The notes beneath the pieces were generated by a model that was not told the origin of the DNA, made no database searches, and saw nothing but the letters and a program-made list of their open reading frames with translations. Positions 4,382-25,707 of a stretch of DNA of 64,000 nucleotides are shown piece by piece (the first letter of the stretch is position 1; every line of letters starts with the position of its first letter). The DNA comes from Chloroflexota bacterium (lineage in GTDB: Bacteria; Chloroflexota; Limnocylindria; Limnocylindrales; CSP1-4), in the NCBI GenBank assembly GCA_016191425.1, contig JACPOR010000006.1, positions 9,711-73,710 of the forward strand, read 5' to 3'. The position numbers were made by a program, and so were the translations under genes.

Positions 4382-4398
4382 TCCGCGCGCCCCGCGGG

Positions 4399-5686: not shown

Positions 5687-5696
5687 CGGACGGCGG

Positions 5697-7334: not shown

Positions 7335-7423
7335 GCCTACGGCCCCGCCATCAGCGCGTACGAGGCGACCATGACGATCAACCCGATCGCGATGCCCAGG
7401 GCGTAGTTCTGCACCCGTCCGGT

Positions 7424-9663: not shown

Positions 9664-10250
9664 CAGGTCGGCTCGTCTTCGCGCTTGGCGATGAAGATGC
9701 CGCCGATCACCGCCGCGAGCAGGAGCACGCTGACGACCTCGAACGGCAGGACATAGTCGCCGAACAGCACTCGGGCGAGGGTGTCGGTGGCCAGGCGGAC
9801 GCGTGACGACGCCTCGCCCCAGTCCGTCGCGCTCACCGCGAGGGCGATCAGGACGACGAGGATGATGGCCGCCACCGCGGCCGAAGCGGCCTGTGTCTGG
9901 AACACGAGCCTGGCCGGTCCGGCCTTCGACTGGGTGAGCATGATCGCGAACAGGATCAGGACGCTGATCGCGCCGATGTAGACGATCACCTGAGCCGCGG
10001 CGACCAGGGGCGCCCCGACCACGACGTAGATCCCGGCCAGGGCAAGGAAGGCCACGATCATCGCGAGGCCGCAGCGAATGATGTCCCGCATCGTCACCAC
10101 CAGCAGGGCCGACGTGAGCATCAGGGTCGCGAGGGCAGCGAACAGCGCATCGTCGACCGAGCCACCACCCAGCACGAACACGATCAGGGCTGGTGTGGTG
10201 ATGATCGCGCCTGCGACCGCTGCGGAGAGGAGGTAGAGCCAGCCTCGCAT
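9663..10250 (-). CDS. nuoJ: NADH-quinone oxidoreductase subunit J
   Basis: NuoJ-like TM protein ending ...FIAKREDEPT; start placed at internal Met (MRGWLYLL...), exact start uncertain by a few codons. Confidence 0.75.
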   Translation of the reverse strand: MRGWLYLLSAAVAGAIITTPALIVFVLGGGSVDDALFAALATLMLTSALLVVTMRDIIRCGLAMIVAFLALAGIYVVVGAPLVAAAQVIVYIGAISVLILFAIMLTQSKAGPARLVFQTQAASAAVAAIILVVLIALAVSATDWGEASSRVRLATDTLARVLFGDYVLPFEVVSVLLLAAVIGGIFIAKREDEPT

Positions 10251-10257
10251 CCGTCGT

Positions 10258-12753: not shown

Positions 12754-12907
12754 TCGGATGGCCGGCGTGGACTGCGGGCGCTGCGGCGACTGCGTGGTGA
12801 GCAGGTGCTCGGCCAGTGTGTCCTCGCAGGGCGCGATGGTATCGAGGACGGCCGGCGTATCCGGGCGGGACTCGGCGCGCGTGATCAGGTCAGCCAAGGT
12901 CGGGGCC

Positions 12908-14239
12908 TCAATGCGTTGCGCTCGCCGCCATCGCAATTGGATGACAGACGCCCGCAGGGCAGGAGCCGCGCTCGAGATGCTCGTCGAGCTCCGCTCGGAA
13001 GTATCGCATCCCGCTGACCAGCGGGAGTGTCGTCAGGCGCTCGTGGTCGCACAGGGCCGAACCGACGATGTCTGCCGCGAGATCGGTGAGGAGATCCAGA
13101 TCACCGGCGCGCGACGTTCCGGCGGCGAGGCGATCCCCGATCTCGGACAGGCGGCGCGTTCCGATCCGGCAGGGGATGGTCTTGCCGCACGCCTCATCGG
13201 CACAGTAGCGGGTCAGGACGCGGGCAAGATCCACGATGCACGCCCGATCATCGGCAACGATCACGGACCCGGAGCCGATATGGGCGCCGGCGGCCCGGAG
13301 CGCCGCAAAGGTGTACGGAACATCCAGTGCATCCGGCGGCAGGATCCCGCCCGAGGGTCCGCCGACCAGGACGGCCTTCAGCTTCCGGGCACCCGTCGGG
13401 GTGCCGGCCAGGGCCGCGACGTCGCGGAGGGAGGTGCCCAGCGGGATCTCGGCCACGCCCGACGCCTCCGGCCCGCGAACCTGCACGAGGATCGTGCCGG
13501 GACATTCGGCCGCGCCGATCCTTGCGAACGCTTCTGGGCCGTTGACCACGATCCACGGGATCGTGGCGAGCGTCTGGACATTGTGGACGACGGTCGGCAG
13601 GCCTCGAAGACCGCGGGTGGCCGGGTGCGGCGGCCGCTGCTCGGGCTGGCCGCGCTTGCCTTCGAGGGCCTTGAGGAGGATCGTCTCCTCGCCGAGCAGG
13701 TAGGCGCCCTGGACCGTGCGGACGCTGAGGTCGAGGTGATGGCCGGGCCCGAACGCGTCGAGACCGACGAATCCCGCGTCCTGGGCGGCCCCGACGGCCG
13801 TTTTGAGGATGCGAATCGTGGCTCCGGCATCCGCCCGCACGGCGATGATCGCCTCATCCGCACCGATGGCGAACGCGGCGATGGCCAGCCCCTCGATGAT
13901 CGCGTAGGGGTTCCGCTCCATGAGCACGCGATCGGTGGCCGACGACGGGTCCGCTCCATAGCCGTTCGCCACCACGACCCGACTGCTGGCCGGCGTGGCA
14001 CTCGCCGCTCGCCACTTGTCGGCCGACGAAAAGCCGGCCCCGCCACGGCCGCGCAGTCCGGACGCGCCGATCGCGGCGGTCGTACCCGTCGCTCCAAGGT
14101 CGCGCAACGCGAGACGGAGGCCGGCGAACGCCCCGGCCGCCATCGCCGCCTCGAGGTCCGTGGGATCCGCCGCGTCCTTGCCTGGCAACAGGATCGCCGG
14201 CCAGCTCCTCGGTGTCGGGAGGATCGTGACGTCGGTCAT
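12908..14239 (-). CDS. nuoF: NADH-quinone oxidoreductase subunit F (51 kDa), divergent
   Basis: GLRGRGGAGFSSADKW, YLLGEETILLKALEG, PHPATRGL.GLPT and C-terminal 4Fe-4S cysteines (CGKTIPC...LCDHE) match NuoF. The CNADE(S/M)EPG motif is altered to ANGYGADPS. ATGA overlap with upstream nuoI/E' stop. Confidence 0.8.
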   Translation of the reverse strand: MTDVTILPTPRSWPAILLPGKDAADPTDLEAAMAAGAFAGLRLALRDLGATGTTAAIGASGLRGRGGAGFSSADKWRAASATPASSRVVVANGYGADPSSATDRVLMERNPYAIIEGLAIAAFAIGADEAIIAVRADAGATIRILKTAVGAAQDAGFVGLDAFGPGHHLDLSVRTVQGAYLLGEETILLKALEGKRGQPEQRPPHPATRGLRGLPTVVHNVQTLATIPWIVVNGPEAFARIGAAECPGTILVQVRGPEASGVAEIPLGTSLRDVAALAGTPTGARKLKAVLVGGPSGGILPPDALDVPYTFAALRAAGAHIGSGSVIVADDRACIVDLARVLTRYCADEACGKTIPCRIGTRRLSEIGDRLAAGTSRAGDLDLLTDLAADIVGSALCDHERLTTLPLVSGMRYFRAELDEHLERGSCPAGVCHPIAMAASATH

Positions 14240-14916
14240 GCGTCGTCGCCCCCGCCGCCGCTGAGCGATGCCCCGAGGCCGGCCAGGAATGCCTGCTCGG
14301 CCGGACGACGGGCGGCCATCGCCGCCGCTTGCTCCAGCAGGGCCGGAGGCTCGAAGCGAAGGTGCCCGTAGAAGGACGCGGTTCCGTAGATCTGGGCGTA
14401 CCAGGTGCCGGTCACCTGGCTGATCCGCTTGAGCGCGCCAACCGGCAGGTAGCCGTAGTGAGCCTGCGTCGCCTCGAGGATCGCCAGCAGGTGGGCCGGG
14501 TCGTGATCGAAGCCTTCGAGGATGTCATCCACGGCACCAACGTCCACGCCCTCGAAATGGTCGTAGGCGGGATCCGGGACGGTCCGTCCGGAGCGTCGGA
14601 GCGCCGATTCCTCGCGCCGTTCGCCGTAGGTCTCGGCGGCGCCCCAATGGACGTGGAAGCGGCCCTTGGTGTCCATCCCGCCCATGTCGATGCACTCGAT
14701 CGGGCAGGCCTGGGCGCACTGGAAGCAGGTTTCGCACTTGAGGGTGCCGTACTCGTCGTAGAGCAACTGGAGGCGGCCCCTGAATTTCGGGGGAATGTCC
14801 GCCCGGACCTCCGGGTACCGGATGGTGGCCTTCGGCTCGAAGAACCGCCGGAGGGTCAGGGCCATGCCCCGGACCATGCCGGACCCCGGAACGAGGCGTA
14901 TCGGATTCATGCTCAT
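14236..14916 (-). CDS. NuoI-like (single Fe-S motif) fused to NuoE-like N-terminal helical domain
   Basis: From MSMNPIRL: YPEV...PKFRGRLQL...CETCFQCAQACPIEC matches the NuoI N-half (one CxxCxxCxxxCPxxC motif), and the second ferredoxin motif is absent. The C-half (FEGVDVGAVDDILEGFDHDPAHLLAILEATQAHYGYLPVGALKRISQVTGTWYAQIYGTASFYGHLRFEP) matches the NuoE N-terminal domain, but the thioredoxin-like 2Fe-2S (N1a) domain and its cysteines are absent. ATGA overlaps on both sides. Confidence 0.65.
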   Translation of the reverse strand: MSMNPIRLVPGSGMVRGMALTLRRFFEPKATIRYPEVRADIPPKFRGRLQLLYDEYGTLKCETCFQCAQACPIECIDMGGMDTKGRFHVHWGAAETYGERREESALRRSGRTVPDPAYDHFEGVDVGAVDDILEGFDHDPAHLLAILEATQAHYGYLPVGALKRISQVTGTWYAQIYGTASFYGHLRFEPPALLEQAAAMAARRPAEQAFLAGLGASLSGGGGDDA

Positions 14917-16250
14917 GAGCCGACGATCACGACTGCCGCGGCGGTCACGAACAGGTTGAGCAAGGCGGCCGGCAGGAGCCACTTCCACGCGAACCCCATC
15001 AGCTGGTCGATCCGCACGCGCGGGAGGGTGCCCCGCATCCAGACAAAGACGAAGACGAAGCCGAACGTCTTGGCCATGAACCAGACGAGCCCGGCGACCC
15101 AGTCGAAGCTCACGTATGCCCAGGCGAAGGTCAGGCCGCCGGCGACAACGTTGAACAGGACGAACCCGATGATCAGCGCCACCCACCAGCGCATCGAGCT
15201 GCGCGCGAGGTAGAAGGGCGCCGCCAGCGCGAGGGTTCCGATTATCGGCACGAGGGCGATCAGGAACAGGAGCGGGATCCCGAGCGAGCCCGGGTACAGG
15301 GGGATCGACAGGGCCGGAAACGGGAACGGTGCGTTCCACCCTCCGAGAAACAGCACGGCTGCCAGCGCTGAGAGGATGAACACGTTCACGTATTCGGCGA
15401 AGAAGAAGAACCCGAAACGCATGCCTGAGTACTCGGTGGCAAAACCGGCCACGATCTCCGAATCGGCTTCAGTCAGGTCGAACGGCGTGCGGTTGGCCTC
15501 TGCTGTGGCTGCGATGAAGAAGATCACGAAGCCGAGTGGCTGACGGAACACGAACCAGTCGGTGAACCAGCCGGATTGCTGCTGGACGATCTGATTCAGG
15601 CTCATGGTCCCGGCGAGGATCAGCAGGCCGACGACCGACAGGGTGAGCGGGATCTCATAGCTGACGATCTGTGCCGCCGAGCGGAGGCCACCCAGAAGCG
15701 AATACTTGTTGAAGCTGGACCAGCCACCCATCAGCAGTCCGACGACACCCATCCCGCCGACCGCGAAGAAGTACAGCAGCCCGATGTTGAAGTCCTGGCC
15801 GTACAGGCCGGGGGCGAACGGCAGCACCAGGAGCGTCATGACCGCGGCCGCGTAGGTCACGACCGGCGCCCAGGTGAACACGATCGGGTCTGCGGCAGTC
15901 GGCGTGAAGTCCTCCTTGATCAACACCTTGAGACCGTGGACGACGGACAGCAGAGAGCCCCATGGCCCGACGCGGTCCGGGCCGACCCGCAGGTTCATGA
16001 GGGCGATCACCTTCATCTCGAGGTAGATGTTCAGGAAGGCGATCGGGATCGTGATGACGAGGATGATCGTGGCCGCCGCGAGGAATCGGACGAAGCCGAG
16101 ATTCGCGAGGATGAGGTCCGCCGCGGTGCCGCCGAACAGCACGATCAGCGCCACCAGGCCAGCCCCGAGCACCGCGAGCAGCGGCACGAGCGTGAACACG
16201 ATCCTGCCGGGCAGGGTCAAGCGCCCCCAGGCGCGCGAAACGGCCGTCAT
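14913..16250 (-). CDS. nuoH: NADH-quinone oxidoreductase subunit H
   Basis: 445 aa polytopic membrane protein with NuoH/ND1 sequence features. Confidence 0.9.
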   Translation of the reverse strand: MTAVSRAWGRLTLPGRIVFTLVPLLAVLGAGLVALIVLFGGTAADLILANLGFVRFLAAATIILVITIPIAFLNIYLEMKVIALMNLRVGPDRVGPWGSLLSVVHGLKVLIKEDFTPTAADPIVFTWAPVVTYAAAVMTLLVLPFAPGLYGQDFNIGLLYFFAVGGMGVVGLLMGGWSSFNKYSLLGGLRSAAQIVSYEIPLTLSVVGLLILAGTMSLNQIVQQQSGWFTDWFVFRQPLGFVIFFIAATAEANRTPFDLTEADSEIVAGFATEYSGMRFGFFFFAEYVNVFILSALAAVLFLGGWNAPFPFPALSIPLYPGSLGIPLLFLIALVPIIGTLALAAPFYLARSSMRWWVALIIGFVLFNVVAGGLTFAWAYVSFDWVAGLVWFMAKTFGFVFVFVWMRGTLPRVRIDQLMGFAWKWLLPAALLNLFVTAAAVVIVGS

Positions 16251-16371
16251 CGATGATCACCGGTCGCCGAGGCAAGACCAAAGCGGAGCCGAGCACGCGA
16301 GCGAGCGCACCCACGCGTGCGTGAGCGAGGGAGCGCAGGCGACAACGCAGGGATGGTCCGGCGGACGGCCC

Positions 16372-17601
16372 TCATTTGTCGACTCCTCCCATGACCGGAT
16401 CGAGGGAGGCCATGATCGCCATGCAGTCGGCGATCAGGTCACCGCGCATGAGCAGGCCGACCGACTGGAGGTGGACGAAACTCGGGTCGTGGATCCGCAT
16501 CCGGAACGGCTGGTCCGTGCCGTCGCTGATCGCGTAGGTCGCGTACTGCCCACGCGGGCCCTCGATGGCCGCGTAGGCCCGGCCGGGTCGGGGGCGAAGC
16601 AATCGCGGCAGTTTCGCCATGATCGGGCCATCCGGCATCTGGTGGAGGCACTGGTCGATGATCCGGAGGCTCTGTTTGATCTCCTCCATCCGGAGCAGGT
16701 AGCGGGCCAGGGAGTCACCCTCGGTCCGGGTCGGGATATCGAAATCGAGTTCGGGATAGATCGAGTACGGGTGCGCCCGCCGGACGTCGAAGGGACTGCC
16801 CGTGGCGCGCAGGTTGGGCCCCGTCATGCACATCGCCAGGGCCGTCTCCGTATCCACGACGCCGAGACCGCGGGCGCGCCGGACGAAGATCTCGTTCTGG
16901 TTGAGGAGCGTGAGGTTGGCCTCGATCTGCCCCGTTGCGCGGCTCATCCAGTCGCCAAGGCGACTCATGAAGTCGTGATTCAGGTCCCCGTTGACGCCGC
17001 CGATCCGGAAGTAGTTGAAGAGCATCCGCTGGCCCGTCAGCGCGGCCAGCATCTCGACGATCTCGTCGCGCTCGATGAACGACCAGAGAATCGGGGTGAG
17101 GCCGCCGAGATCGAGGGCGAACCAGCCCATGAACAGGGCGTGGCTCGCGATCCGGTTGAGCTCACCGGACAGCACCCGGATGTACTCGGCACGGCGCGGG
17201 ACGTCGACGTCGAGGAGCTTCTCGAAGGCCATGACGGGTGACCACTCGCAGAACAGCGAGCTGACGTATTCGAGCGGGTCAACCTGGCTGATGACCTGGT
17301 GGTAGTCGGCGTTCTCGCACAGCTTCTCGACCCCGCGATGGAGGTAGCCGAGGACGGGATCCAGATCCACGACCTTCTCGCCGTCGAGTTTCAGGACGAT
17401 GCGCAGGACGCCATGGGTGGACGGATGCTGCGGTCCCATGTTCAGGAACATCTGTCCATCGCCGAGCGTGTAGAACTCGGCCTCCCGCTCAGTCCTCGGC
17501 GGGTACGGTGGAACGGTTCCGAAGACGCCGATCTCGTCGTCCAGGAGGACGCGCGGGTCGTCGGCCGATGCGTGCCGGCCGGGATGTGAGGTCGTCGTCA
17601 T
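16372..17601 (-). CDS. nuoD: NADH-quinone oxidoreductase subunit D (49 kDa)
   Basis: 409 aa; MFLNMGPQHPSTHGVLR..., YLHRGVEKL, C-terminal region typical of NuoD. Confidence 0.9.
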   Translation of the reverse strand: MTTTSHPGRHASADDPRVLLDDEIGVFGTVPPYPPRTEREAEFYTLGDGQMFLNMGPQHPSTHGVLRIVLKLDGEKVVDLDPVLGYLHRGVEKLCENADYHQVISQVDPLEYVSSLFCEWSPVMAFEKLLDVDVPRRAEYIRVLSGELNRIASHALFMGWFALDLGGLTPILWSFIERDEIVEMLAALTGQRMLFNYFRIGGVNGDLNHDFMSRLGDWMSRATGQIEANLTLLNQNEIFVRRARGLGVVDTETALAMCMTGPNLRATGSPFDVRRAHPYSIYPELDFDIPTRTEGDSLARYLLRMEEIKQSLRIIDQCLHQMPDGPIMAKLPRLLRPRPGRAYAAIEGPRGQYATYAISDGTDQPFRMRIHDPSFVHLQSVGLLMRGDLIADCMAIMASLDPVMGGVDK

Positions 17602-17613
17602 CGGGCCGCCCGC

Positions 17614-18159
17614 CTACGCCTTCACGCGGCGGATCGCGCCGGCCGAGGTGCCCTGCGGGGCGTGGCTTCGCTCCATGGGCCGGACCCCGCCGCCGGGGGA
17701 ACGCGCGGCATCGTCGGGGAGGAAGAAGTCCTTCCGGAGCGGAAAGCTTGTGTAGTCAGGCGGCATGTAGATGCGCCGCAGGTCGCGGTTGCCCTCGAAC
17801 ACGATCCAGAACATGTCGTAGGCCTCGCGCTCCATCCACTCCGCGCCCTTCCAGAGGAAGGTGATCGAGGGGGTCCGCGGCTCGTCGCGGGCGATCCCTT
17901 CGGCCACGACCCGCAGCCAGTCCGAGGTCGTTTCACTCCAGAGGTGATAGACGACCTGCATCTGCTCGCCGGTGTCGACGCCGGCCAGGTCGGACAGCAT
18001 CAGGAAGCGGAACTCCGGCTCGTCGTGGAGCGCCCGGAGCACATCGGGGGCCGCCGCCGCCGGGATCCGCAGCTCGGTCTCGTCGTGACGCTGGCGAATC
18101 GGTTCGGTCGCGACATCGCCGAACCTGGATTCCAGGCGTGCCCTGAAGGCTCGATCCAC
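17614..18159 (-). CDS. nuoC: NADH-quinone oxidoreductase subunit C (30 kDa)
   Basis: 181 aa with NuoC-like core (WKGAEWMEREAYDMFWIVFEG); separate from nuoD. Confidence 0.85.
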   Translation of the reverse strand: MDRAFRARLESRFGDVATEPIRQRHDETELRIPAAAAPDVLRALHDEPEFRFLMLSDLAGVDTGEQMQVVYHLWSETTSDWLRVVAEGIARDEPRTPSITFLWKGAEWMEREAYDMFWIVFEGNRDLRRIYMPPDYTSFPLRKDFFLPDDAARSPGGGVRPMERSHAPQGTSAGAIRRVKA

Positions 18160-18160
18160 C

Positions 18161-18901
18161 TCAGACTCCAGGCGGAACGGTGGGGCCGATGGCGCGCTCC
18201 GGCCAGTGGCCGCGGCGATCCTTGACGATCTGCTGGAGCTTCATCATCCCGTAGATGAGGCCCTCCGGGCGGGGCGGGCAGCCGGGGATGTAGACGTCCA
18301 CCGGCATGACCCGGTCGATTCCCTCGATCGTGCTGTAACTGCGCTTGTAGCGCCCCCCGGAACAGGTGCAGTCGCCCATCGCGACACACCACTTGGGCTC
18401 GGGCATCTGCTCCCACAGGCGGACGAGCGGGCCCGCCATCTTCGTGGTCAGGGTGCCGGCGACGATCAGGACGTCCGCCTGGCGCGGCGAGGCGCGGAAC
18501 GGGAACATGCCCCAGCGATCCATGTCGTTCTTCGAGGTCGCGGCGCTCATCATCTCGATCGCGCAGCAGGCAAGGCCCGACAGGAGCGGCCAAAGGCTGT
18601 TGGCCCGCAGGAGATCGAGCACGACGTCGGCCTTGGTCGGGATCACCTCGAGCAGGCCGGACCATCGGGCGTCGTCGCGGCGGGACACGTCGCTGGCCGC
18701 AACCTCGGCAAGGTGCGCGAGGCCGCTGTCCGTTCCGCCGTTGTAGGCGGTCCCGGCGGCGGAAGTCCACAGGTCGTTCTTCACGACGATGGGCGCCGTG
18801 ACACCCGAGGTCCCCGGAACGACGAGGGCCGTCGAGCCGATGCGTGCGCGACCCTCGCGGGCAGCGACGCCGGCGGGCTCCGGGTCGTCGTTCATCGCCA
18901 C
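18161..18901 (-). CDS. nuoB: NADH-quinone oxidoreductase subunit B (N2 cluster subunit), with ~75-aa N-terminal extension if the ORF start is used
   Basis: NSLWPLLSGLACCAIEMM...GDCTCSGG...PGCPP motifs; true start may lie downstream of the ORF start (canonical NuoB core begins around residue 80). Confidence 0.85.
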   Translation of the reverse strand: MAMNDDPEPAGVAAREGRARIGSTALVVPGTSGVTAPIVVKNDLWTSAAGTAYNGGTDSGLAHLAEVAASDVSRRDDARWSGLLEVIPTKADVVLDLLRANSLWPLLSGLACCAIEMMSAATSKNDMDRWGMFPFRASPRQADVLIVAGTLTTKMAGPLVRLWEQMPEPKWCVAMGDCTCSGGRYKRSYSTIEGIDRVMPVDVYIPGCPPRPEGLIYGMMKLQQIVKDRRGHWPERAIGPTVPPGV

Positions 18902-19353
18902 GTGAGAACCCCCTTTCGCCAGGCGTATGCGAGGCCGATCAGGAGGATACCCACGAACAGGAGCATGCTCACGAAACCGGCGAGCAGCAGGTCTCGGAAG
19001 ATCACCGCCCAGAGGTAGATGAAGACGACCTCGATGTCGAAGGCGACGAACAGCAGGGCATAGATGTAGAACGAGAAACCGAAACGACCGTGCGTATCAC
19101 CGAGGGTGTCGATGCCCGACTCGTAGGGCAGGCCTTTGTGGACGTCACCGCGATTGCGATGCGACAGCAGCCACGCCGCGCCGAACGTCAGGAACGTGAA
19201 CGACACGGCCGCGACGGCGAAACCGACGATGTACCAGATCCCGGTCAACCCGATCCTCACTCCGAACGGCGCCAGCAACGGGCGACGCTCGCTTCTGGGC
19301 AGCAACGTCCTGGGCGGGACGAGCCTCGAGGCCAATCGCAGCGGGCCGTGCAC
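18892..19353 (-). CDS. nuoA: NADH-quinone oxidoreductase subunit A
   Basis: C-terminal ...LIGLAYAWRKGVLTWR typical of NuoA. ORF start is GTG 19353; an alternative GTG at 19260 would give a more typical ~123-aa protein. Confidence 0.8.
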   Translation of the reverse strand: MHGPLRLASRLVPPRTLLPRSERRPLLAPFGVRIGLTGIWYIVGFAVAAVSFTFLTFGAAWLLSHRNRGDVHKGLPYESGIDTLGDTHGRFGFSFYIYALLFVAFDIEVVFIYLWAVIFRDLLLAGFVSMLLFVGILLIGLAYAWRKGVLTWR

Positions 19354-19542
19354 GGACGGCCGTCGCCCATCGGCATTCTAGCAGGGGCACTCGCTCCGGC
19401 AGGGCGCCGGAATCCCCCGACCGGCGCCCTGCCCGAGGTCGAAGGACGGCCCGCGCCGAGCGCGCGTGCAAGACCACGGGCCGCCCTCCGTCGGCGAACC
19501 CCGCAGGCGGGGTGCGCGCTGAATGTGGCGGTGCGGCCCTTC

Positions 19543-19578
19543 GCGGCGCAATAGGGAGCGTTCCCTAACGATTGGGAG
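19543..19578. promoter_or_regulatory. two tandem copies (20-bp phase) of a 16-bp inverted repeat TAGGGA-gcgt-TCCCTA / TtGGGA-gcgt-TCCCTA upstream of nuo operon
   Basis: Seen directly: ...aaTAGGGAGCGTTCCCTAacgatTGGGAGCGTTCCCTAcag... between the stop of the upstream methyltransferase gene (19605) and nuoA; looks like an operator for a dimeric regulator. Confidence 0.4.
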
Positions 19579-19604
19579 CGTTCCCTACAGCGGATCAGGC
19601 CATG

Positions 19605-20804
19605 TCACCGCGCCGGCAGTCGAAAGGCGAGACCGCGCAGCGTGGACGAGTCGGGCAGGGAGCGTCCGAACAGCAGGACCGCGAAGCGGCCCGTCACTCG
19701 CGGATCGAGGAGTCGGAAGAGAGCCGCTCGTGCCGTGAGGTACCCACCGATGTCAGTCGCTCCGGGGCCTTCTAGTCCGACGAGCAGTTCGCCCGCCCCG
19801 AGGCCGGTCAGGAACTCCGCCTGCGTCGTGGCCCCGAGGAAATCCAGCCCGGCCGTCCTTGCCGCGACCTCGACGGCGGTGAGGTCCACGTGCGCCGTCA
19901 GATCCTGGCGACCCACGTTCCGGAACGGATCGTCGTGGACGCGGTGGTGGACATAGGCTCGCAGGAGGCTCCCGCGCCCCGGGTGGTACAGGGCCGCGGC
20001 AGGATGCCCATAGTCGATGAGCAGGAGGACGCCACGCTCCAGTCCCCTCGCCGCGTCGGCGACCCAGGCATCCACCGTGAGGCAGATCTCCCCATGCTGG
20101 CCCGGCATCAGCCGGACGCCCTCGCGCGCCAGCCTGCCCGCAAGGTCGGTAGTGGAGGGCGGCAGTTCGAGCGCCGTGAACGCGCCATCCGAGCCAACAG
20201 CCACGAAGAGCTCCGCCAGTCCGCCATCCCGTCGGCCCACGACCCGATGCACAGGCAATGCGTCGATGACCTCGTTGGCCAGGACCACGCCGACGATCGG
20301 GCTGCCATCGTCCGGTTCGAGGACCGTGCCGCCGCCGACGCTCGCGAGCCGGGCGAGCACCTGGCGCTCGCGATCGGGGGCCCGCTCGGCGATCCGGTAC
20401 CGCAACGCACCAAGGAGGTCTGACCCGCTCCGTTGGAGGCCACCAACGATGCCCGCGGCGAGCGCCCCGGTGCCCGCTCCGAATTCCCGCACGGTGAACC
20501 GCCCGGGGCGGCCGAGCCGATCCCACACCTCCTCGAGCTGCCGGGCGATCGCCCAACCGAAGATGGGATGCGATTCCGGCGCCGTGAGGAAGTCGGAGGT
20601 CCGGCCCGGACCCCGGGTGCCGGAGGCGTAGTAGCCACAGGCGGGGTGATAGAGCGCGAGTTCCATGAACCTCGCGAAGGTGATCGGACCATCGGCCCGG
20701 ATCTCAGCGCGGATGAGCTCGGCCAGATCCGGGTCGTCCCCGGGTTCTGGCCGGGGGGCGAGGTCGGCGGGCCGCAGGAGGCTCACCACAGGATCGTCGG
20801 TCAT
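19605..20804 (-). CDS. class I SAM-dependent methyltransferase, MidA/NDUFAF7 (DUF185) family
   Basis: Start at internal ATG (MTDDPVVSLL...); FTVREFGAGTGALAAGI and LANEVIDALPVHRV motifs resemble MidA/NDUFAF7. ATGA overlap with upstream gene stop at 20801-20804. Confidence 0.7.
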   Translation of the reverse strand: MTDDPVVSLLRPADLAPRPEPGDDPDLAELIRAEIRADGPITFARFMELALYHPACGYYASGTRGPGRTSDFLTAPESHPIFGWAIARQLEEVWDRLGRPGRFTVREFGAGTGALAAGIVGGLQRSGSDLLGALRYRIAERAPDRERQVLARLASVGGGTVLEPDDGSPIVGVVLANEVIDALPVHRVVGRRDGGLAELFVAVGSDGAFTALELPPSTTDLAGRLAREGVRLMPGQHGEICLTVDAWVADAARGLERGVLLLIDYGHPAAALYHPGRGSLLRAYVHHRVHDDPFRNVGRQDLTAHVDLTAVEVAARTAGLDFLGATTQAEFLTGLGAGELLVGLEGPGATDIGGYLTARAALFRLLDPRVTGRFAVLLFGRSLPDSSTLRGLAFRLPAR

Positions 20805-21901
20805 CGCCGTCGAGCCCCGAGGACGAGCCGCAGGCCGGGGCCGACCAGCGTGTGACCGCCCAGCAGAATCGGGACCGTTGCGGCATGCGCGGCCGCCGTG
20901 AGGGTTCGGAGCCAAGGATCGACGATTCGCTCGTGCAACAACAAGTCGCTCGCGAACCGGTCTTCGGGGACGGGCCAGCTCGCCTCGTCCCGACCGAATC
21001 GATGCGCCATCAGGACGCGTGTATCCACCACCGCGGCGTCGCCGAGGGTCGCCATGAGATCCCCGAATGCGGCGGGTCCGTCGCGATCGAGCAGGAGGCC
21101 GAGGGATGATCTCGTCGGCCTCTGGGACGGCCCCGCCGTCTTCATGCCGCGCTCCTCGATCAGGGCACGCGTCCGGCTGGCGGTGTGCGCCTCGACCCAG
21201 TGCAGGGAGTCCGATGATGTCCGGCCCGCGACGAGGAGCTCCGCTCGAGGATCGGTGGTGCGGGTCGTGACGCGCATGTGCGCATCGCGCACCCGGAGAA
21301 GGGCCGGATCGTTCGGCTCGGCCAGGCCCGCGAAGAAGGCGTCGATCGGGGAATCGAGGTCCACCTGCAGTCGCCAGCGGCTCAGCAGATCGCGAACCTC
21401 AACGCCTCGATCGGCGAGCCAACGCGGGAGGCCATTGTCGCCGGTGAGCTCGGGGCGCCCGGGGCGCCCGGGGAGCTCGGGGAGCTCGGGGAGCTCGGGG
21501 AGCTCGGGGAGCTCGGGGACCTCGGAAAGCCCGCCGAGGGCGACCTTCGCCGGGATGGCCACGATGTCGCCCGAGTAGCGGTTGTTGGTCAGGGCATGTC
21601 CGGTGCCCCTCGCCGCGGTGACGAACGCTCGCCGGTCCGTCGCCGTCGCGAGCGGGACGCTGCCCGACCCGAGGACGATGATCCCGGCACCAGCGTCGAG
21701 GGCCGCCAGCCGCCGAAGCCGCGCCCCGAATGGAGTACCGCCGGGATGTGTCTCGACGACCCGCGATATCGCGCCTGCTGCCGCAAAGCCGCGCGCCTGC
21801 CGCGCGGCGTTCCGCGCCCTCGCCATCGCGAACACCGACTCCAACGGCCCGGCGCCCGCGCCCGGAACGGCATGGAGGATGATGGCGACGACGCGCGTCA
21901 T
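20801..21901 (-). CDS. hypothetical protein with N-terminal nucleotidyltransferase-like (CofC/MobA/DUF2064-like) fold and internal (ELP)n/(GRP)n tandem repeat
   Basis: 366 aa; N-terminal MTRVVAIILHAVPGAGAGP...IIVLGSGSVP resembles GT-A/NTP-transferase families (weak, by recall); contains SELPELPELPELPELPGRPGRPEL encoded by a perfect 9-nt DNA tandem repeat. Confidence 0.4.
   Translation of the reverse strand: MTRVVAIILHAVPGAGAGPLESVFAMARARNAARQARGFAAAGAISRVVETHPGGTPFGARLRRLAALDAGAGIIVLGSGSVPLATATDRRAFVTAARGTGHALTNNRYSGDIVAIPAKVALGGLSEVPELPELPELPELPELPGRPGRPELTGDNGLPRWLADRGVEVRDLLSRWRLQVDLDSPIDAFFAGLAEPNDPALLRVRDAHMRVTTRTTDPRAELLVAGRTSSDSLHWVEAHTASRTRALIEERGMKTAGPSQRPTRSSLGLLLDRDGPAAFGDLMATLGDAAVVDTRVLMAHRFGRDEASWPVPEDRFASDLLLHERIVDPWLRTLTAAAHAATVPILLGGHTLVGPGLRLVLGARRR
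21452..21523. repeat. in-frame 9-nt tandem repeat (GGGGCGCCC x2, GGGGAGCTC x5, GGGGACCTC x1) inside CDS 20801..21901
   Basis: Seen directly in sequence; encodes (ELP)5(GRP)2 on the minus strand. Confidence 0.85.
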
Positions 21902-21934
21902 CGCGCGAGTCTAGCGAGGGAGGCAGCAGCGCCG

Positions 21935-22534
21935 ATGGGCCGTGTGCGGGCCTACGTTGGCCTCGGGGCGAATCTGGGTGACGCCGCCTCGACGCTCGCA
22001 GCCGGAATCCATGCCCTCGCGGTCCTGCCGGGCGTCCGTCTCCGGGGCGTCTCGCGGCTCTACGCCACGAAGCCGGTTGGTATCGTGGAGCAGCCGGACT
22101 TCCGGAACGCCGTTGTGGCCCTGGACGTGCCGGCCGGCCCGGATTCGGCTACGGGTGCCGTGTCCCTGCTCGTGGCGCTGAAGCAGATTGAGCGGGCATT
22201 CGGACGCAAGGACCGCGAACACTGGGGTCCTCGCGAGCTGGATCTGGACCTGCTCATCTTCGGCCGCGCGCGATTGTCGCTGGACCGCCCGCTCGCAGGT
22301 CTGTCCCTCGATCCCGGCAAGGCCGACCGCCTGCTGGTCGTGCCCCACATCGAGGCCGCCGATCGGCTGTTCGTGCTCGCGCCCCTGAGCGACCTTGTTC
22401 CTGGCCTCGTCCCGCCTGGCTGGGGCGAGACCGTCGCCGCAACTCGTCGCCGCCGCGAGGCGGTCGAAGGCCCGAAGGCGGTCCGTCCGATCGCCGGCTG
22501 GACGGGCGAGGGCTGGGCTGCGTCCCAGATGTAG
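21935..22534 (+). CDS. folK: 2-amino-4-hydroxy-6-hydroxymethyldihydropteridine pyrophosphokinase (HPPK)
   Basis: MGRVRAYVGLGANLGD...WGPRELDLDLLIFG matches HPPK; GAGGGAGG Shine-Dalgarno ~15 nt upstream of ATG 21935; divergent from the gene starting at 21901. Confidence 0.85.
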   Translation: MGRVRAYVGLGANLGDAASTLAAGIHALAVLPGVRLRGVSRLYATKPVGIVEQPDFRNAVVALDVPAGPDSATGAVSLLVALKQIERAFGRKDREHWGPRELDLDLLIFGRARLSLDRPLAGLSLDPGKADRLLVVPHIEAADRLFVLAPLSDLVPGLVPPGWGETVAATRRRREAVEGPKAVRPIAGWTGEGWAASQM

Positions 22535-22650
22535 GCATCGCCTCCCGGGCGGGTCAACGGCCGGATTTCGCCGATACGGTAGGCTGGCGTGGCACGAGGG
22601 CGACGCCCGACCGCGCAGCATCCCAGGCGAACCTGCACGAGAGCGATCCC

Positions 22651-25600
22651 ATGCCGAAGCCGCCGAAGCCGCCGAAGCCGCCGAACGCGCCGAAGCCGCC
22701 CAAGTCGCTCGCCGCCTCGACCTTCGTCCTGGCCCTGGTCGTCGCGTTGGCGCCGTGGGCCCTGGTCGTGCCCGTCCCGGCCTCGGCGGCCGTCGTCAGC
22801 GCGTATGCCTCGGTCGGTCGAGATCCGATCGCGCCCGGCGTCCAGTACGACCAGGGACGGATCGTGACGACCGCGGGCAGCCAGGCCGTCAACATCGTGG
22901 AGGTCGATCTCGCCAACCCGGCCATCTCCTTCGAGGCGGCGCTTTCCAATGGCCGCGTGACCGGGCTCGAGCGGACCAGCACGCTGGCGAAGAATCGCTC
23001 ATCCGAAGGCCACCGCGTCGTCGCGGCGATCAACGGCGATGTGTGGGGCGGTTTCACCAACGACATGTCGTTGGCACCCAACGGCCTGCACGTGGAGGCG
23101 GGCGAGCTGGTGACTGCCGCGCTGGGTCCGAGACCGACGTTCGGCGTCGGGGCGGACGGTCGGCCGATGCTCGGCTCGCCCAGCGTCAGCGTCACGCTGG
23201 GAACAAGTCTCGGCACATCGTTCGTGATCAATCGGGTCAACCAGCTTCGACGGTCCAGCGAAGTCGTCCTCTATACCCCGCGCTTCGCAAGCAGGACGAG
23301 CAGCGCCGCAACCGGGACCGACATCGTCATCGGCGGGCTCACGCTGCCGCTGCGCATATCGGGATCGTGGGCCGGGGTCGTCATGACGGCCAGGCCGGCC
23401 GAGGGCGGCTGGCCGATCGATCCCGGCACGGTGGTCCTCACGGTGCCGGCCACATCGCCGCTCACAGCGCTGGTGCCCGGCGAGCCGGTCACGCTCACGA
23501 CCGCCGTGACCGGGGGCTGGGAGTCAGTCCAGCAGGCCGTCGGGGGGCGCGAGTGGATCGTTCGGGACGGAGCGGTCAACATTTCCCCGCGTCCCACCAG
23601 CGCCGACCAGCTCTACGCCCGCAGTTCGGTGGGCCTCACCGCCGACGGCCGCCTGATCCTCGCCACCGTGGACGGTGGTCAACCGGGGTGGAGCAGGGGC
23701 ATGCGCCTGCCCGAGCTGGCGGACCTGATGCTGTCGCGGGGCGCGGTCAACGCGCTCAATCTCGACGGTGGCGGATCCACCGCGCTCGCCATCCGCCTCG
23801 CGGGAACCAGCGGCCCGGTCCTCGTCAACCGGCCCTCGGATGGCTCGGAGCGGGGTGTCACCAATAGCATCCAGGTCGTCAGCAACGTACCCACCGGACC
23901 GCTCTCGGCGATCAACGTCCAGCCTGGATCGCGGAGCCTCTATCGGAATGGCACGGCGCAGTTCACCTTCACGGGGATGGATTCCGGCTACAACGCCGTC
24001 CCGCTTGTCGCGGGCCAGGTGATCTGGTCGGTGACAGCCCCGATCGGGACCGTCGATACGACAGGCCGGTTCGTGGCCACGGCACCCGGAACCGGCCAGG
24101 TCGTTGCGACCGCCAACGGCGTGACGGGTGCCGCGACGATCACAGTGCTCGACGATTCGACGCCACCGATCGCCGCCCCGCCTCGGGTCAGCTTGCCGGT
24201 CAACACCGCGATCGGCTCGGGTGTGACGGTCACGGTCAACTGGGACGCGGCCACGGAGACCGAATCGGGCGTCGTGTCGTATGAGCTCCAGCGGAGCGTG
24301 AACGGCAAGGCGTGGACGACGATGCCGAAGGCCGCGGCGGCCGCGCGGAGCACCACCCTCACCATCCCGCGCGACCGGACCTACCAGTTCCAGGTCCGTG
24401 CCGTCGACCTGGCCGGCAATGTCGGGGCGTGGACGACCGCGGCCGCGTTCCGTCTGGCCGTCGCCCAGGAGACATCGTCCGCCCTGACGTTCGCCGCAGG
24501 CAGCTGGAGCCGGGCCACCTCCCCGTGGTATGACGGTGGGGCGGCCCGCACGACCCGGTCCGTCGGCGGGATAGCGCGGTTCACCTTCACCGGAAGCTCG
24601 TTCGCCTGGGTCGCGGCAGTCGGCCCGCTCCGGGGTGGCGCGGGCGTCTACGTGGACGGCGTCCTCGCGGGCAACGTCAATACCAACCGCTCGAGCTCGG
24701 CCGCGAGGTTGGTCGTCTTCAGCCGGACCTGGGCGACCTCGGCGAAGCGGACGATCGAGATCCGCACGCTGGGAACGGCGGGAACTCCACGGGTGGACGT
24801 GGACGCCCTGGTCGTGCTCGCGCCGGCCGACGGAGTCACGCCCCCGTCGCCCTCGCCGACCCCTACGCCGACCCCGACCCCGACCCCGACCCCGACACCG
24901 CCGCCCCCAACTGCCGACACCGTGCTCGTGGGGGCCGGCGACATCGCGTCATGCGGCCTCACTGGCGACAGCGCGACGGCGAAGTTGGTGGCGGGCATCG
25001 CCGGGACCGTCTTCACCGCGGGTGACAACGCCTACGAGAACGGGACCGCCGCCGAGTTCCGTGATTGCTACGGCCCGACGTGGGGCGCGTTCCGCGATCG
25101 AACGTACCCGGCTCCGGGCAACCATGACTACGGGACGTCCGGCGCGGCCGGCTACTTCGACTACTTCGGTGAGCGGGCCGGCCCGCGCGGCGCCGGCTGG
25201 TACGCCTATGACCTCGGCGACTGGCGGATCTACGCCCTGAACTCGAATTGCACGAAGGTCGGCTGCGCGGCCGGCTCGGAACAGGAGCAGTGGCTGCGCG
25301 CCGACCTCGCGACCAATCCTCGCTCCTGCGTGCTTGCCTACTGGCACGACCCGCGCTTCACGTCCGGCCCGACCGGCAACAACGCGAGCGTCACGCCCCT
25401 CTGGAACGCGTTGTACGAGGCCGGCGCGGAGGTCATCGTCAACGGCGCCGACCACGACTACGAGCGGTTCGCCCCTCAGACCCCCGCCGGCGCCGCCGAC
25501 CCCGCGAAGGGCATCCGCGAATTCGTGGTTGGCACCGGCGGTGCGAGCCTGCGCAGCTTCTCGACCATTCGCGCCAACAGCGAGATCCGCAACAGCACCA

Positions 25601-25707
25601 CGTACGGGGTCCTCAAGCTGACGCTCTCGGCAAACGGCTACGCGTGGCAGTTCATTCCAACAGGCAGCGGCACCTTCACGGACTCGGGCAGCGGGGCCTG
25701 CCGCTGA
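22651..25707 (+). CDS. large membrane-anchored/secreted multidomain protein: phosphodiester glycosidase-like domain, Ig-like (Big_2)/FN3-like region, Pro-Thr linker, C-terminal calcineurin-like metallophosphoesterase
   Basis: 1018 aa. N-terminal Lys/Pro-rich (PKPPK) tail then hydrophobic anchor. VVAAINGDVWGGF...NALNLDGGGS (NAGPA/DUF2233-like). SPSPTPTPTPTPTPTPPPP linker. GDIASCG...GDNAYENG...GNHDY...VNGADHDYERF (metallophosphatase motifs). Confidence 0.7.
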   Translation: MPKPPKPPKPPNAPKPPKSLAASTFVLALVVALAPWALVVPVPASAAVVSAYASVGRDPIAPGVQYDQGRIVTTAGSQAVNIVEVDLANPAISFEAALSNGRVTGLERTSTLAKNRSSEGHRVVAAINGDVWGGFTNDMSLAPNGLHVEAGELVTAALGPRPTFGVGADGRPMLGSPSVSVTLGTSLGTSFVINRVNQLRRSSEVVLYTPRFASRTSSAATGTDIVIGGLTLPLRISGSWAGVVMTARPAEGGWPIDPGTVVLTVPATSPLTALVPGEPVTLTTAVTGGWESVQQAVGGREWIVRDGAVNISPRPTSADQLYARSSVGLTADGRLILATVDGGQPGWSRGMRLPELADLMLSRGAVNALNLDGGGSTALAIRLAGTSGPVLVNRPSDGSERGVTNSIQVVSNVPTGPLSAINVQPGSRSLYRNGTAQFTFTGMDSGYNAVPLVAGQVIWSVTAPIGTVDTTGRFVATAPGTGQVVATANGVTGAATITVLDDSTPPIAAPPRVSLPVNTAIGSGVTVTVNWDAATETESGVVSYELQRSVNGKAWTTMPKAAAAARSTTLTIPRDRTYQFQVRAVDLAGNVGAWTTAAAFRLAVAQETSSALTFAAGSWSRATSPWYDGGAARTTRSVGGIARFTFTGSSFAWVAAVGPLRGGAGVYVDGVLAGNVNTNRSSSAARLVVFSRTWATSAKRTIEIRTLGTAGTPRVDVDALVVLAPADGVTPPSPSPTPTPTPTPTPTPTPPPPTADTVLVGAGDIASCGLTGDSATAKLVAGIAGTVFTAGDNAYENGTAAEFRDCYGPTWGAFRDRTYPAPGNHDYGTSGAAGYFDYFGERAGPRGAGWYAYDLGDWRIYALNSNCTKVGCAAGSEQEQWLRADLATNPRSCVLAYWHDPRFTSGPTGNNASVTPLWNALYEAGAEVIVNGADHDYERFAPQTPAGAADPAKGIREFVVGTGGASLRSFSTIRANSEIRNSTTYGVLKLTLSANGYAWQFIPTGSGTFTDSGSGACR
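22654..22704. repeat. 9-nt tandem repeat (CCGAAGCCG and variants, ~6 units) encoding the N-terminal (PKP)n tail of CDS 22651..25707
   Basis: Seen directly: ccgaagccgccgaagccgccgaagccgccgaacgcgccgaagccgcccaagtcg. Confidence 0.8.

Follow-up and report, generated by a model that had tools for sequence, protein, structure and literature searches.

The gene pair upstream of the nuo operon

The window (the whole stretch of 64,000 nucleotides of Chloroflexota DNA that was analysed) carries two overlapping genes directly upstream of its complex I (nuo) operon, all on the minus strand; the second gene of the pair encodes a MidA-like methyltransferase, and the first a protein called here the partner.

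20801..21901 (-), partner gene, an open reading frame of 366 aa, GC3 0.84
19605..20804 (-), MidA/NDUFAF7-family SAM-dependent methyltransferase gene, 399 aa from the ATG at 20804, GC3 0.81
20801..20804 (-), ATGA stop/start overlap of partner and MidA genes, junction sequence cggcgATGAccgac
19354..19604 (-), MidA-nuoA spacer, about 250 bp
18892..19353 (-), nuoA, first gene of the complex I operon (PF00507, E 2.4e-31)

In both reading frames, the GC bias at third positions is that expected of real genes. At their junction, the partner stop TGA (20803-20801) overlaps the MidA start ATG (20804-20802), as the sequence cggcgATGAccgac reads, in agreement with the ATGA coupling claimed by the original prediction; the same 4-nt overlap is also called in three related loci (L001, L002 and L084), and in the remaining related places the two genes are adjacent without overlapping. 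The prediction had likewise placed the end of the MidA-like gene some 250 bp before nuoA on the same strand, which is where it lies: the gene ends at 19605 and the nuoA open reading frame starts at 19353, this being the start of the longest frame, so that the true one may be further downstream. nuoA is followed by nuoB, nuoC and nuoD, on the same strand as MidA.

Regarding its family, the 399-aa protein is 100% identical to P0121, an NCBI protein from a metagenome-assembled genome named "SAM-dependent methyltransferase [Chloroflexi bacterium]". In Pfam it scores 167.9 bits with PF02636 (Methyltransf_28, COG1565; E 3.6e-49), for which the gathering threshold is 23.3, and it covers positions 1-248 of the 249 of the profile; the DUF185/MidA-like assignment made earlier thus holds at the level of the HMM. 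Its sequence matches in the PDB are 4f3n (6.5e-47), 1zkd (6.5e-28) and 5ztz (3e-9), the last being the Dictyostelium MidA, to which the window protein as a single sequence aligns over ~90 N-terminal residues only; a family profile of 123 relatives, the window protein among them, aligns with 5ztz at full length (residues 22-396, E 5.8e-61). The class I SAM-binding motif I (E/D-x-G-x-G-x-G) corresponds to REFGAGTG, residues 105-112, and aligns with MEFGAGTG of 4f3n and VEMGPGRG of 5ztz; in the MidA alignment (A2), its E, G and G columns reach 90% conservation or more. On these sequence grounds, the protein is clearly a member of the MidA/NDUFAF7 family.

Three short sequence elements are found around the two genes, two of them putative expression signals.

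21908..21913 (-), -10-like hexamer TAGACT, ending 7 nt before the partner ATG
19375..19383 (-), extended -10-like element TGCTAGAAT, candidate promoter of the nuo operon
19554..19587 (-), two direct copies, both exact, of the inverted-repeat unit TAGGGAACGCTCCC, directly after the MidA stop

The hexamer TAGACT is a candidate promoter for a leaderless or near-leaderless partner-MidA transcript; around it, CTAGACTC does not vary between the window, L001, L002, L035 and L084. When the MidA-nuoA spacers were compared, TGnTAGAATG proved invariant in the window, L001, L002, L007, L027 and L035. A simple scan of the spacer for terminator-like or canonical sigma-70 sites found none, and an Rfam search over 19000-22700, which includes the spacer, gave 0 matches. 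The spacer inverted repeat is found in a looser form, TAGG-N12-CCTATTGC, in L002 and L027; the palindrome GGGAACGCTCCC was considered as an operator and rejected, because its exact form is not kept in the other spacers. Taken together, the conserved -10-like elements suggest two transcription units, partner-MidA and then nuo. Given the element between MidA and nuoA, the partner and MidA genes seem to be something other than just the opening cistrons of the nuo operon, and co-transcription of partner-MidA with nuo is uncertain for the Limnocylindria-like clade.

The partner protein

The AlphaFold model of the partner (AF2, pLDDT 89.9) has two domains, an N-terminal one (~1-195) and an alpha/beta C-terminal one (~196-366). 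Neither the partner nor its 32 homologues match any model in Pfam or NCBIfam, and no nucleotidyltransferase model appears even at E values up to 10; the PDB sequences gave no match by phmmer or by profile search, and none of the profiles of described complex I assembly-factor families in Pfam and NCBIfam matches the partner.

The original prediction had proposed a CofC/MobA-like nucleotidyltransferase-like N-domain. The structural comparison goes in this direction: the best Foldseek matches of the N-domain, with a weak likeness (E about 3e-3, probability 1.0), are Rv2983/FbiD, 7p97 and 3cgx, and comprise FbiD (Rv2983), a 3-phosphoglycerate guanylyltransferase and a DUF2064-type transferase. 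With FbiD/CofC (Rv2983, PDB 6bwg) and the MobA-like enzymes, the TM score normalised on the target is 0.54-0.59, with only 15-16% identity. The partner also has an acidic motif, VDLDSPID, at the place where the CofC/FbiD/MobA-like families carry DxDxPxD. What does not carry over is the sequence-level assignment, as no sequence model recognises the domain and its Gly-rich loop is devoid of the usual basic residue. The NTP-binding signature of nucleotidyltransferases includes a conserved basic residue, in the form GxGxR/K or PxK...KSRL, and the FbiD/CofC and MobA-like enzymes use this Lys/Arg for NTP binding; by inspection of the alignment, the corresponding conserved stretch of the partner, VVAIILHAVPxxGAGPLE, has an invariant His10 and no conserved Lys or Arg in the loop HAVPxxGAGPLE. 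The N-domain is therefore only weakly described as GT-A/CofC/MobA-like, at the level of the modelled fold.

Unlike those enzymes, the partner has an extra C-domain of 170 residues without a structural match: modelled alone it reaches a pLDDT of 92, and Foldseek against the PDB returned only noise (best E 0.14, TM below 0.4). Within the domain, 45 positions are invariant and many of these are charged, a pattern typical of a functional site. An internal duplication was discarded, since hhalign of the N-half against the C-half was negative (probability 0.2%). Candidate Rosetta-stone fusions of the partner with MidA were discarded as well: P0277 and P0279 join fragments of both proteins, with parts of each missing, and look frameshifted or fragmentary, and P0059 and P0094 are merely partners over-extended at the N-terminus.

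The window copy has one peculiarity of its own.

21442..21525 (-), in-frame 9-bp tandem repeat of 9.3 copies (TRF), encoding PELPELPEL...PGRPGRP

This insertion occurs in this genome only, being missing from the 32 homologues of the alignment (A1), and in the AF2 model it forms a disordered surface loop (residues 129-148, pLDDT below 50).

Among the loci scanned, the partner occurs only in the Limnocylindria-like ones; Nitrospirota, cyanobacteria and other Chloroflexota lack it. Its one detectable link to complex I is its adjacency to MidA, and its nucleotide-binding signature is not conserved. It represents a conserved unannotated family and a candidate new accessory factor.

Gene order around MidA and the proposed target arginine of NuoD

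The linkage of MidA with complex I was scanned in 80 GTDB species, by recording the nuo/ndh genes within 10 kb of MidA. The order partner-MidA-nuoA is found in 9 of the 9 Limnocylindria-like places examined; the flanking synteny of purH, glpX and folK is largely kept within Limnocylindria too, so that conservation within the clade, taken alone, could be inertia. Outside the clade, MidA is directly upstream of nuoA in 17 of the 20 assessable loci of Nitrospirota, with 16 bp from the MidA stop to the nuoA start in L021, and these 17 are all the loci labelled or clustering as Nitrospira-type; the culturable Nitrospira moscoviensis and N. defluvii have MidA directly before nuoA. Of the 35 cyanobacterial-type loci, 10 have MidA beside ndhH or ndhCKJ: in eight of them ndhH lies 0.2-6.6 kb upstream of MidA, and one locus each has the order ndhCKJ-MidA (L047) and MidA-ndhCKJ (L064); Anabaena/Nostoc and Microcoleus are among the genera with ndhH beside MidA. 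Most MidA loci of the 80-species sample are not beside nuo; Thermomicrobiales, Dehalococcoidia, Desulfuromonadota, Thermodesulfobacteriota and most cyanobacteria have MidA with no nuo gene within 10 kb. The neighbour-joining tree of MidA tracks taxonomy and the sister group Thermomicrobiales is unlinked, hence the linkage arose, or was kept, more than once; in the unlinked taxa the neighbours of MidA are heterogeneous, so no conserved context competes with complex I.

The absence of conserved linkage to nuo in related genomes had been named beforehand as the finding that would speak against a dedicated role; the linkage is instead conserved in them, and it extends with differing arrangements to Nitrospirota and cyanobacteria. 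The 80-species scan supports, at the level of gene order, a functional link between MidA and complex I. As to the further proposal that the pair is a dedicated complex I module, the recurrence of the MidA-nuo linkage sustains its MidA half, and the partner is tied to complex I only through its coupling to MidA.

The nuo operon of the Limnocylindria-like clade is atypical, in that it encodes a NuoI/E-like protein and an 892-aa Fer2/GltD-like/4Fe-4S fusion; in the window, the operon has NuoF. The residue of interest for a methyltransferase of this family is found in NuoD.

16372..17601 (-), nuoD, proposed substrate of the methyltransferase (PF00346, NF004739)
17335..17337 (-), codon of NuoD Arg89 (GYLHRGVEKL), equivalent of the dimethylated Arg85 of NDUFS2

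Residues 84-94 of the translated NuoD are LGYLHRGVEKL, and GYLHRG[VM]EK is present in the NuoD or NdhH of all the linked loci. The target arginine belongs to an HRGXE motif (Hameedi 2021); this arginine of the HRG motif is dimethylated in mitochondrial NDUFS2 and in Nqo4 of Paracoccus denitrificans, and the symmetric dimethyl-arginine (sDMA) was found at the equivalent position in bovine, human, Pichia pastoris and P. denitrificans complex I, and not in that of Escherichia coli, where the arginine of NuoCD is present and unmodified (Carroll 2013, PMC3750175). In Carroll 2013, sDMA is indicated by neutral losses of 31 and 70 Da. In human cells, NDUFAF7 is the enzyme responsible for the dimethylation of NDUFS2; E. 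coli is not known to have a MidA. The context YLHRGVEKL reported by the original prediction is therefore present, with Arg89 in place, although it counts as weak and non-discriminating evidence, because this arginine is nearly universal and E. coli leaves it unmodified.

Proposed function and comparison with known systems

The reading preferred here, to which a probability of about 60% is given, is that the partner and MidA form a module for the arginine methylation of NuoD, in which the partner is a new accessory protein. The MidA-like protein is predicted to be a SAM-dependent protein arginine methyltransferase, and its most likely substrate would be NuoD Arg89 (HRGVEK), located beside the iron-sulfur cluster N2; methylation would precede or accompany the assembly of the NuoB/C/D quinone module, in the manner of NDUFAF7 and NDUFS2 in mitochondria. 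The Limnocylindria-specific partner, which would combine a degenerate nucleotidyltransferase-like N-domain with a novel and highly conserved C-domain, may be made in step with MidA by means of the gene overlap, and its probable role with respect to this target is that of a cofactor, an adaptor or a second maturation activity. A conserved promoter of their own would drive transcription of the two genes, and a second promoter, located in the spacer, that of nuo.

One alternative accepts NuoD as the MidA substrate and takes the partner as unrelated to complex I, such as a nucleotidyltransferase-like protein whose substrate is a pterin or another small molecule, as the divergent folK might suggest, with a transcript shared for historical reasons only. 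In its favour, MidA is linked to nuo/ndh in Nitrospirota and cyanobacteria without any partner, which is absent from other Chloroflexota also; the best structural matches of the N-domain are nucleotidyltransferases of cofactor biosynthesis (FbiD/CofC, MobA-like); and a divergent folK is 27-36 bp away in the window, L001, L002, L035, L084 and the place of P0240 (in the window, 36 bp separate the folK and partner starts). However, the overlap or tight adjacency with MidA is kept in 9 of 9 places, down to about 49-55% partner identity; in L083 folK is not beside the partner, and MidA and nuo are still there; and a standard biosynthetic nucleotidyltransferase would be expected to keep the usual NTP-binding residues, which the partner does not. 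This alternative is regarded as rather unlikely. A folate or pterin role for the pair as a whole was judged less likely too, because the folK adjacency is lost in L083, where MidA-nuo stays, and is absent in the other phyla. The opposite emphasis, by which the unusual complex I of the clade would undergo a second modification or cofactor insertion with the partner as the active part, and MidA would be secondary, has on its side the confinement of the partner to a clade with an atypical nuo operon and the many charged residues among the 45 invariant positions of the C-domain; these are correlations only, no catalytic motif can be recognised in the partner, and its C-domain lacks a structural homologue. 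The idea is given very little credence.

Another idea is that the MidA-like enzyme has a different substrate, protein or nucleic acid, and that its position near nuo reflects co-regulation with energy metabolism or chance kept by synteny. In prokaryotes, the function of MidA is known from in silico inference only, and according to one study a Wolbachia MidA methylates DNA when present in E. coli, which makes other substrates conceivable; the preponderance of MidA loci that are not beside nuo is compatible with this idea, and the window protein is nearer to an uncharacterised Burkholderia COG1565 protein than to characterised MidA or to the alphaproteobacterial/mitochondrial sequences. Against it, different complex I genes (nuoA, ndhH, or ndhC-K-J on either side) adjoin MidA in three phyla, which is hard to obtain by chance when a random gene has a probability of ~1%, by a rough estimate, of falling within 10 kb of a nuo operon; the scan found no alternative recurrent neighbour; and the gene linked to MidA in cyanobacteria is ndhH in particular, the homologue of the substrate. 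Another substrate is thus considered improbable, and methylation of NuoD is kept as the preferred reading for MidA.

A broader proposition is that methylation of NuoD/NdhH by MidA is ancient and extends beyond Proteobacteria, and that the Limnocylindria partner is in addition a previously unrecognised complex I maturation factor; the modification would then exist in the complex I of Chloroflexota and Nitrospira and in the photosynthetic NDH-1 of cyanobacteria, and the partner would be a cofactor of MidA or a second modifying enzyme, of a new family. This reading, taken as a whole, is tentative and still somewhat doubtful.

To our knowledge, little has been learned about factors dedicated to the assembly or maturation of bacterial complex I, and dimethyl-arginine near cluster N2 has been demonstrated only in mitochondria and one alphaproteobacterium. 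The linkage of MidA with nuo/ndh in three non-proteobacterial phyla predicts sDMA in the NuoD of Nitrospira and Limnocylindria, and in the NdhH of cyanobacterial NDH-1; Nitrospira includes culturable nitrite oxidisers. The outcome in these phyla would be relevant to the proposal that the modification originated in Proteobacteria. The dimethyl-arginine beside N2 has been discussed in relation to complex I assembly and to the redox potential of N2 (Hameedi 2021); one paper on a cyanobacterial NDH-1 structure does not mention methylation.

Among known systems, NDUFAF7/MidA of human and Dictyostelium discoideum (5ztz) share with the window protein the PF02636 family, the class I methyltransferase core and the full-length profile alignment, and the proposed substrate residue is the same, the HRGxE arginine of the 49-kDa/NuoD subunit; the window protein differs in being bacterial (Chloroflexota), its gene adjoins the complex I operon and overlaps that of an extra partner, and its activity is a prediction from sequence. 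The closest solved structures are those of the COG1565 protein of Burkholderia thailandensis (4f3n/4g67, E 6.5e-47) and of the DUF185 protein of Rhodopseudomonas palustris (1zkd, E 6.5e-28), both proteobacterial structural-genomics entries without an assigned substrate. Nqo4 of P. denitrificans, with sDMA on the equivalent Arg65, is a case of the modification in a bacterial complex I, that is, outside mitochondria (Carroll 2013, PMC3750175); this species is alphaproteobacterial, of the lineage of the mitochondrial ancestor, its enzyme is presumed to be a MidA homologue, and the literature compared mentions neither operon linkage nor a partner protein. Finally, Ca. Actinomarina has heliorhodopsin, an 11-subunit nuo cluster and NDUFAF7 in one predicted transcriptional unit; its NDUFAF7 gene follows nuoN, whereas that of the window precedes nuoA, no partner gene is mentioned, and its complex I has 11 subunits, compared with the presence of NuoF in the window operon (Bulzu et al., bioRxiv 10.1101/2021.02.01.429150). 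This cluster is an independent case, from the literature, of NDUFAF7-nuo linkage in a non-proteobacterial bacterium.

The methyltransferase gene and its neighbours

The 399-aa protein almost certainly is a MidA-family enzyme: it matches Pfam PF02636 (Methyltransf_28, formerly DUF185, MidA family) over the whole model with an E-value of 3.6e-49, and its SAM-binding motif I reads REFGAGTG; no NCBIfam model matches it. The nearest PDB sequences are an uncharacterised COG1565 protein of Burkholderia thailandensis (4f3n, E 6.5e-47) and a DUF185 protein of Rhodopseudomonas palustris (1zkd, E 6.5e-28), followed by Dictyostelium MidA (5ztz, E 3e-9, N-terminal ~90 residues only). A profile of 123 MidA relatives aligns to residues 22-396 of 5ztz (E 5.8e-61); therefore, homology to the characterised enzyme covers the whole protein. 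The family is large and widespread: at a cut-off of E ≤ 1e-3, an exhaustive HMMER search gives about 11,000 representative relatives. One of them, P0324, is a giant protein of 3371 aa in which a MidA-family domain occurs twice, at residues about 882-1211 and again at about 2544-2849. An NCBI MAG protein (P0121) whose sole annotation is 'SAM-dependent methyltransferase [Chloroflexi bacterium]' is 100% identical to the 399-aa product. The gene lies directly downstream of the one for its partner protein, and the features concerned are as follows.

Features of the window
21902-21937: folK-partner intergenic gap, 36 bp between divergent start codons
21908-21913, minus strand: TAGACT hexamer of CTAGACTC, its end 7 nt before the partner ATG
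20801-21901, minus strand: partner ORF, 366 aa
21442-21525: in-frame 9-bp tandem repeat (PEL/PGR) within the partner gene, in a disordered loop
19605-20915, minus strand: MidA-like ORF, with the in-frame ATG at 20804 that starts the 399-aa product
19375-19383, minus strand: extended −10-like element TGCTAGAAT in the MidA–nuoA spacer
18892-19353, minus strand: nuoA, downstream of MidA
16372-17601, minus strand: nuoD
17335-17337, minus strand: codon of NuoD Arg89

In GC content by codon position, both ORFs look like real genes (GC3 of 0.84 for the partner and 0.81 for the MidA-like ORF, in sequence of ~69% GC), and the partner stop overlaps the MidA start by 4 nt, because the junction reads cggcgATGAccgac. 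For both proteins, the closest relatives are in Chloroflexota MAGs that bear the label Candidatus Limnocylindrales/Limnocylindria. On the upstream side, folK (HPPK) is oriented divergently, across a gap of 27-32 bp in the related loci L001 and L002; downstream of MidA, the same strand carries nuoA, nuoB, nuoC, nuoD, nuoH, a NuoI/E-like gene, nuoF, a gene for an 892-aa fusion, and nuoJ-N. This nuo operon (4154-19353, minus strand) is atypical, and its layout, nuoA-B-C-D-H, NuoI/E-like gene, nuoF, fusion and nuoJ-K-L-M-N, is conserved in the relatives L001, L002, L083 and L084. Its 221-aa NuoI/E-like protein has a NuoI-like beginning with one Cys cluster and continues as NuoE (PF01257); the fusion joins 2Fe-2S (Fer2_4), GltD-like FAD/NAD(P)H (Pyr_redox_2, Fer4_20) and NuoI-like 2x[4Fe-4S] domains.

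Regarding transcription, CTAGACTC is invariant in five loci, and the placement of its TAGACT points to a partner–MidA transcript with little or no leader; together with the 36-bp gap, it suggests leaderless transcripts and a lineage −10 consensus of TAGAMT. TGnTAGAATG, invariant in the MidA–nuoA spacer of six loci, is consistent with a separate nuo promoter. Judged solely from the conservation of these motifs, the two Limnocylindria genes seem to form a small operon of their own ahead of nuo; no terminator-like site was found in the window between MidA and nuoA, so that read-through is possible.

The same spacer holds other elements. Right after the MidA stop, TAGGGAACGCTCCC occurs twice in direct orientation without a mismatch (19554-19567 and 19574-19587, minus strand); each copy is itself an inverted repeat, TAGGGA-N-TCCCTA, and an operator or an RNA hairpin is conceivable. 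L002 and L027 have a looser version, TAGG-N12-CCTATTGC; the exact motif is absent from every other spacer, and the one match to it among 82 loci is inside the L001 partner gene. The GC-rich CTTGCACGCGCGCTCGGCGCGGGCCG (19447-19472, minus strand), some 65 nt ahead of the nuo −10-like element, contains a short hairpin; the window, L002, L027 and L035 share it in nearly identical form, and a regulator of nuo expression may bind there.

The coupled partner protein

As for the partner, it has thousands of relatives, the best 120 all at least 54% identical and from Chloroflexota/Limnocylindria sources, a few of these carrying the JGI name 'MocA'; a family HMM finds it only in Limnocylindria-like loci, always directly upstream of MidA. 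PDB sequence searches with it were negative. Neither the partner nor 32 homologues match a Pfam or NCBIfam model, even with E allowed up to 10. The AlphaFold2 model, from a 33-sequence alignment, is confident and has two domains (pLDDT 89.9, pTM 0.87), and Foldseek against the PDB places M. tuberculosis FbiD/Rv2983 on top; the next matches are GlmU, 3-phosphoglycerate guanylyltransferase, a DUF2064-type transferase, KdsB and MobA-like proteins, with E-values of 3e-3 to 5e-2, probabilities of at most 1.0 and TM of 0.54-0.59 normalised to target. At the level of fold, these matches weakly agree with the original prediction of a CofC/MobA-like N-domain.

In CofC/MobA-like nucleotidyltransferases, a basic Lys/Arg belongs to the NTP-binding signature; inspection of the alignment revealed no conserved Lys/Arg in the partner N-terminal strand-loop, which reads VVAIILHAVPxxGAGPLE with an invariant His. 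An acidic VDLDSPID motif at residues 180-187 resembles the DxDxPxD motif of FbiD/CofC/MobA-like enzymes. The C-terminal ~170 residues contain 45 invariant positions, including GRTS, EERG, QRP, DTRVL, DRFASDLL and GGHTLVGPG; modelled alone, this domain reached a pLDDT of 92, and its structure search gave no significant match (best E 0.14). Comparison of the two domains ruled out the C-domain as a duplicate of the N-domain. That the partner is an active nucleotidyltransferase is unlikely, and a role in the same process as MidA is a tentative proposal, somewhat short of even odds.

The PEL/PGR repeat is absent from the homologues in the alignment. A second 9-bp tandem repeat (22653-22700), within 1.3 kb of it and likewise in frame, gives a 1018-aa protein (ORF 22651-25707, plus strand) the N-terminal sequence PKPPKPPKP; this protein has phosphodiester glycosidase (NAGPA) and calcineurin-like phosphoesterase domains. 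In L083 (4931-6368), a long-read contig, the partner gene is split across three frames, probably by assembly error rather than as a pseudogene, and the gene calls there (two no-Pfam genes, 320 and 321 aa) are misleading.

Linkage of MidA to nuo and ndh genes

The order partner–MidA–nuoA-B-C-D-H… occurs in every Limnocylindria-like place examined (the window, L001, L002, L007, L027, L035, L083, L084 and the JGI place of protein P0240), down to about 52-55% MidA identity; purH, glpX and folK synteny is likewise kept, and conservation within the clade, taken by itself, could be inertia. One genome per GTDB species was scanned with A2, an alignment of diverse MidA proteins with a consensus sequence at its head, giving 80 loci from at least eight phyla, where nuo/ndh neighbours were located by tblastn with the Nuo proteins of the window.

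Linked arrangements outside Limnocylindria
Nitrospirota, same strand: MidA immediately upstream of nuoA-B-C-D-…F…H, 17/20 assessable loci
Cyanobacteria, same strand: ndhH (NuoD homologue) 0.2-6.6 kb upstream of MidA, eight loci
Filamentous cyanobacteria, ndhH just upstream: ndhH–MidA regions L018 7494-9965, L036 7529-11152, L008 8604-11182
Synechococcus sp. H65.1 (L047): ndhC-K-J directly upstream of MidA
L064, whose MidA clusters with cyanobacteria: ndhC-K-J 0.8 kb downstream of MidA

All assessable loci with a Nitrospira, Nitrospiraceae or Nitrospirales label are among the linked Nitrospirota; L021, of this phylum, has 16 bp between the MidA stop and the nuoA start, with secA upstream. In Nitrospira, the nuo operon appears to begin with MidA. 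Among cyanobacteria, ndhH directly adjoins MidA in Microcoleus (L008) and Chroococcidiopsidaceae (L018), and a small GAF-like gene intervenes in Anabaena (L036); L018 has two tandem ndhH copies ahead of MidA. By tblastn, no nuo gene lies within 10 kb of MidA in Thermomicrobiales, Dehalococcoidia, Desulfuromonadota, Thermodesulfobacteriota, Bacillota and Acidiferrales; the immediate neighbours in unlinked taxa are heterogeneous (rubrerythrin, LPG synthase, FMN reductase, PnrA, cytidylate-kinase-like and HD proteins). By a rough estimate, a random gene has a chance of ~1% of falling within 10 kb of a nuo operon. A neighbour-joining tree of MidA (no bootstrap) tracks taxonomy and clusters Limnocylindria with the unlinked Thermomicrobiales; therefore, the linkage was gained or retained separately per lineage, in differing arrangements.

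NuoD as the proposed substrate

The target residue was correctly mapped in the original prediction: NuoD residues 84-94 translate as LGYLHRGVEKL, which fits the published motif, and GYLHRG[V/M]EK is present in all linked NuoD/NdhH proteins. Carroll et al. 2013 (PMC3750175) showed symmetric dimethylation of the Arg after His in HRG to be complete in bovine, human and Pichia pastoris complex I and, at Nqo4 Arg65, in that of Paracoccus denitrificans; in their data E. coli NuoCD carries this Arg without the modification, and Thermus thermophilus has Thr in its place. NDUFAF7 is the enzyme credited with this modification (Rhein et al. 2013 and later work), and the modified Arg sits 3.7 Å from cluster N2 (Hameedi et al. 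2021). By itself, the NuoD arginine is weak evidence, because E. coli has the same Arg unmodified. We put the probability that NuoD is the substrate of the window MidA at roughly 0.6-0.65.

MidA would then methylate NuoD Arg89 in a SAM-dependent reaction, probably by symmetric dimethylation, before NuoD joins NuoB and cluster N2, by analogy with NDUFAF7 acting on NDUFS2 in Q-module assembly. The overlapping stop and start codons would let partner and MidA be made in a fixed ratio, with the partner serving as adaptor, cofactor or second maturation activity.

In the searchable literature, the sole mention of an NDUFAF7 homologue in a nuo cluster is that following the 11-subunit operon of Ca. Actinomarina (Bulzu et al.); methylation goes unmentioned in the one structure paper on cyanobacterial NDH-1 that was checked. 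The breadth of the MidA–nuo/ndh linkage (Nitrospirota, Cyanobacteria, Limnocylindria), the clade-specific, unannotated partner coupled to MidA, and the putative two-promoter layout (partner–MidA, nuo) are apparently undescribed there, and part of the MidA phylogenomic picture may already be in print. The methyltransferase itself adds one more member to a known family, and its proposed target is of a known type.
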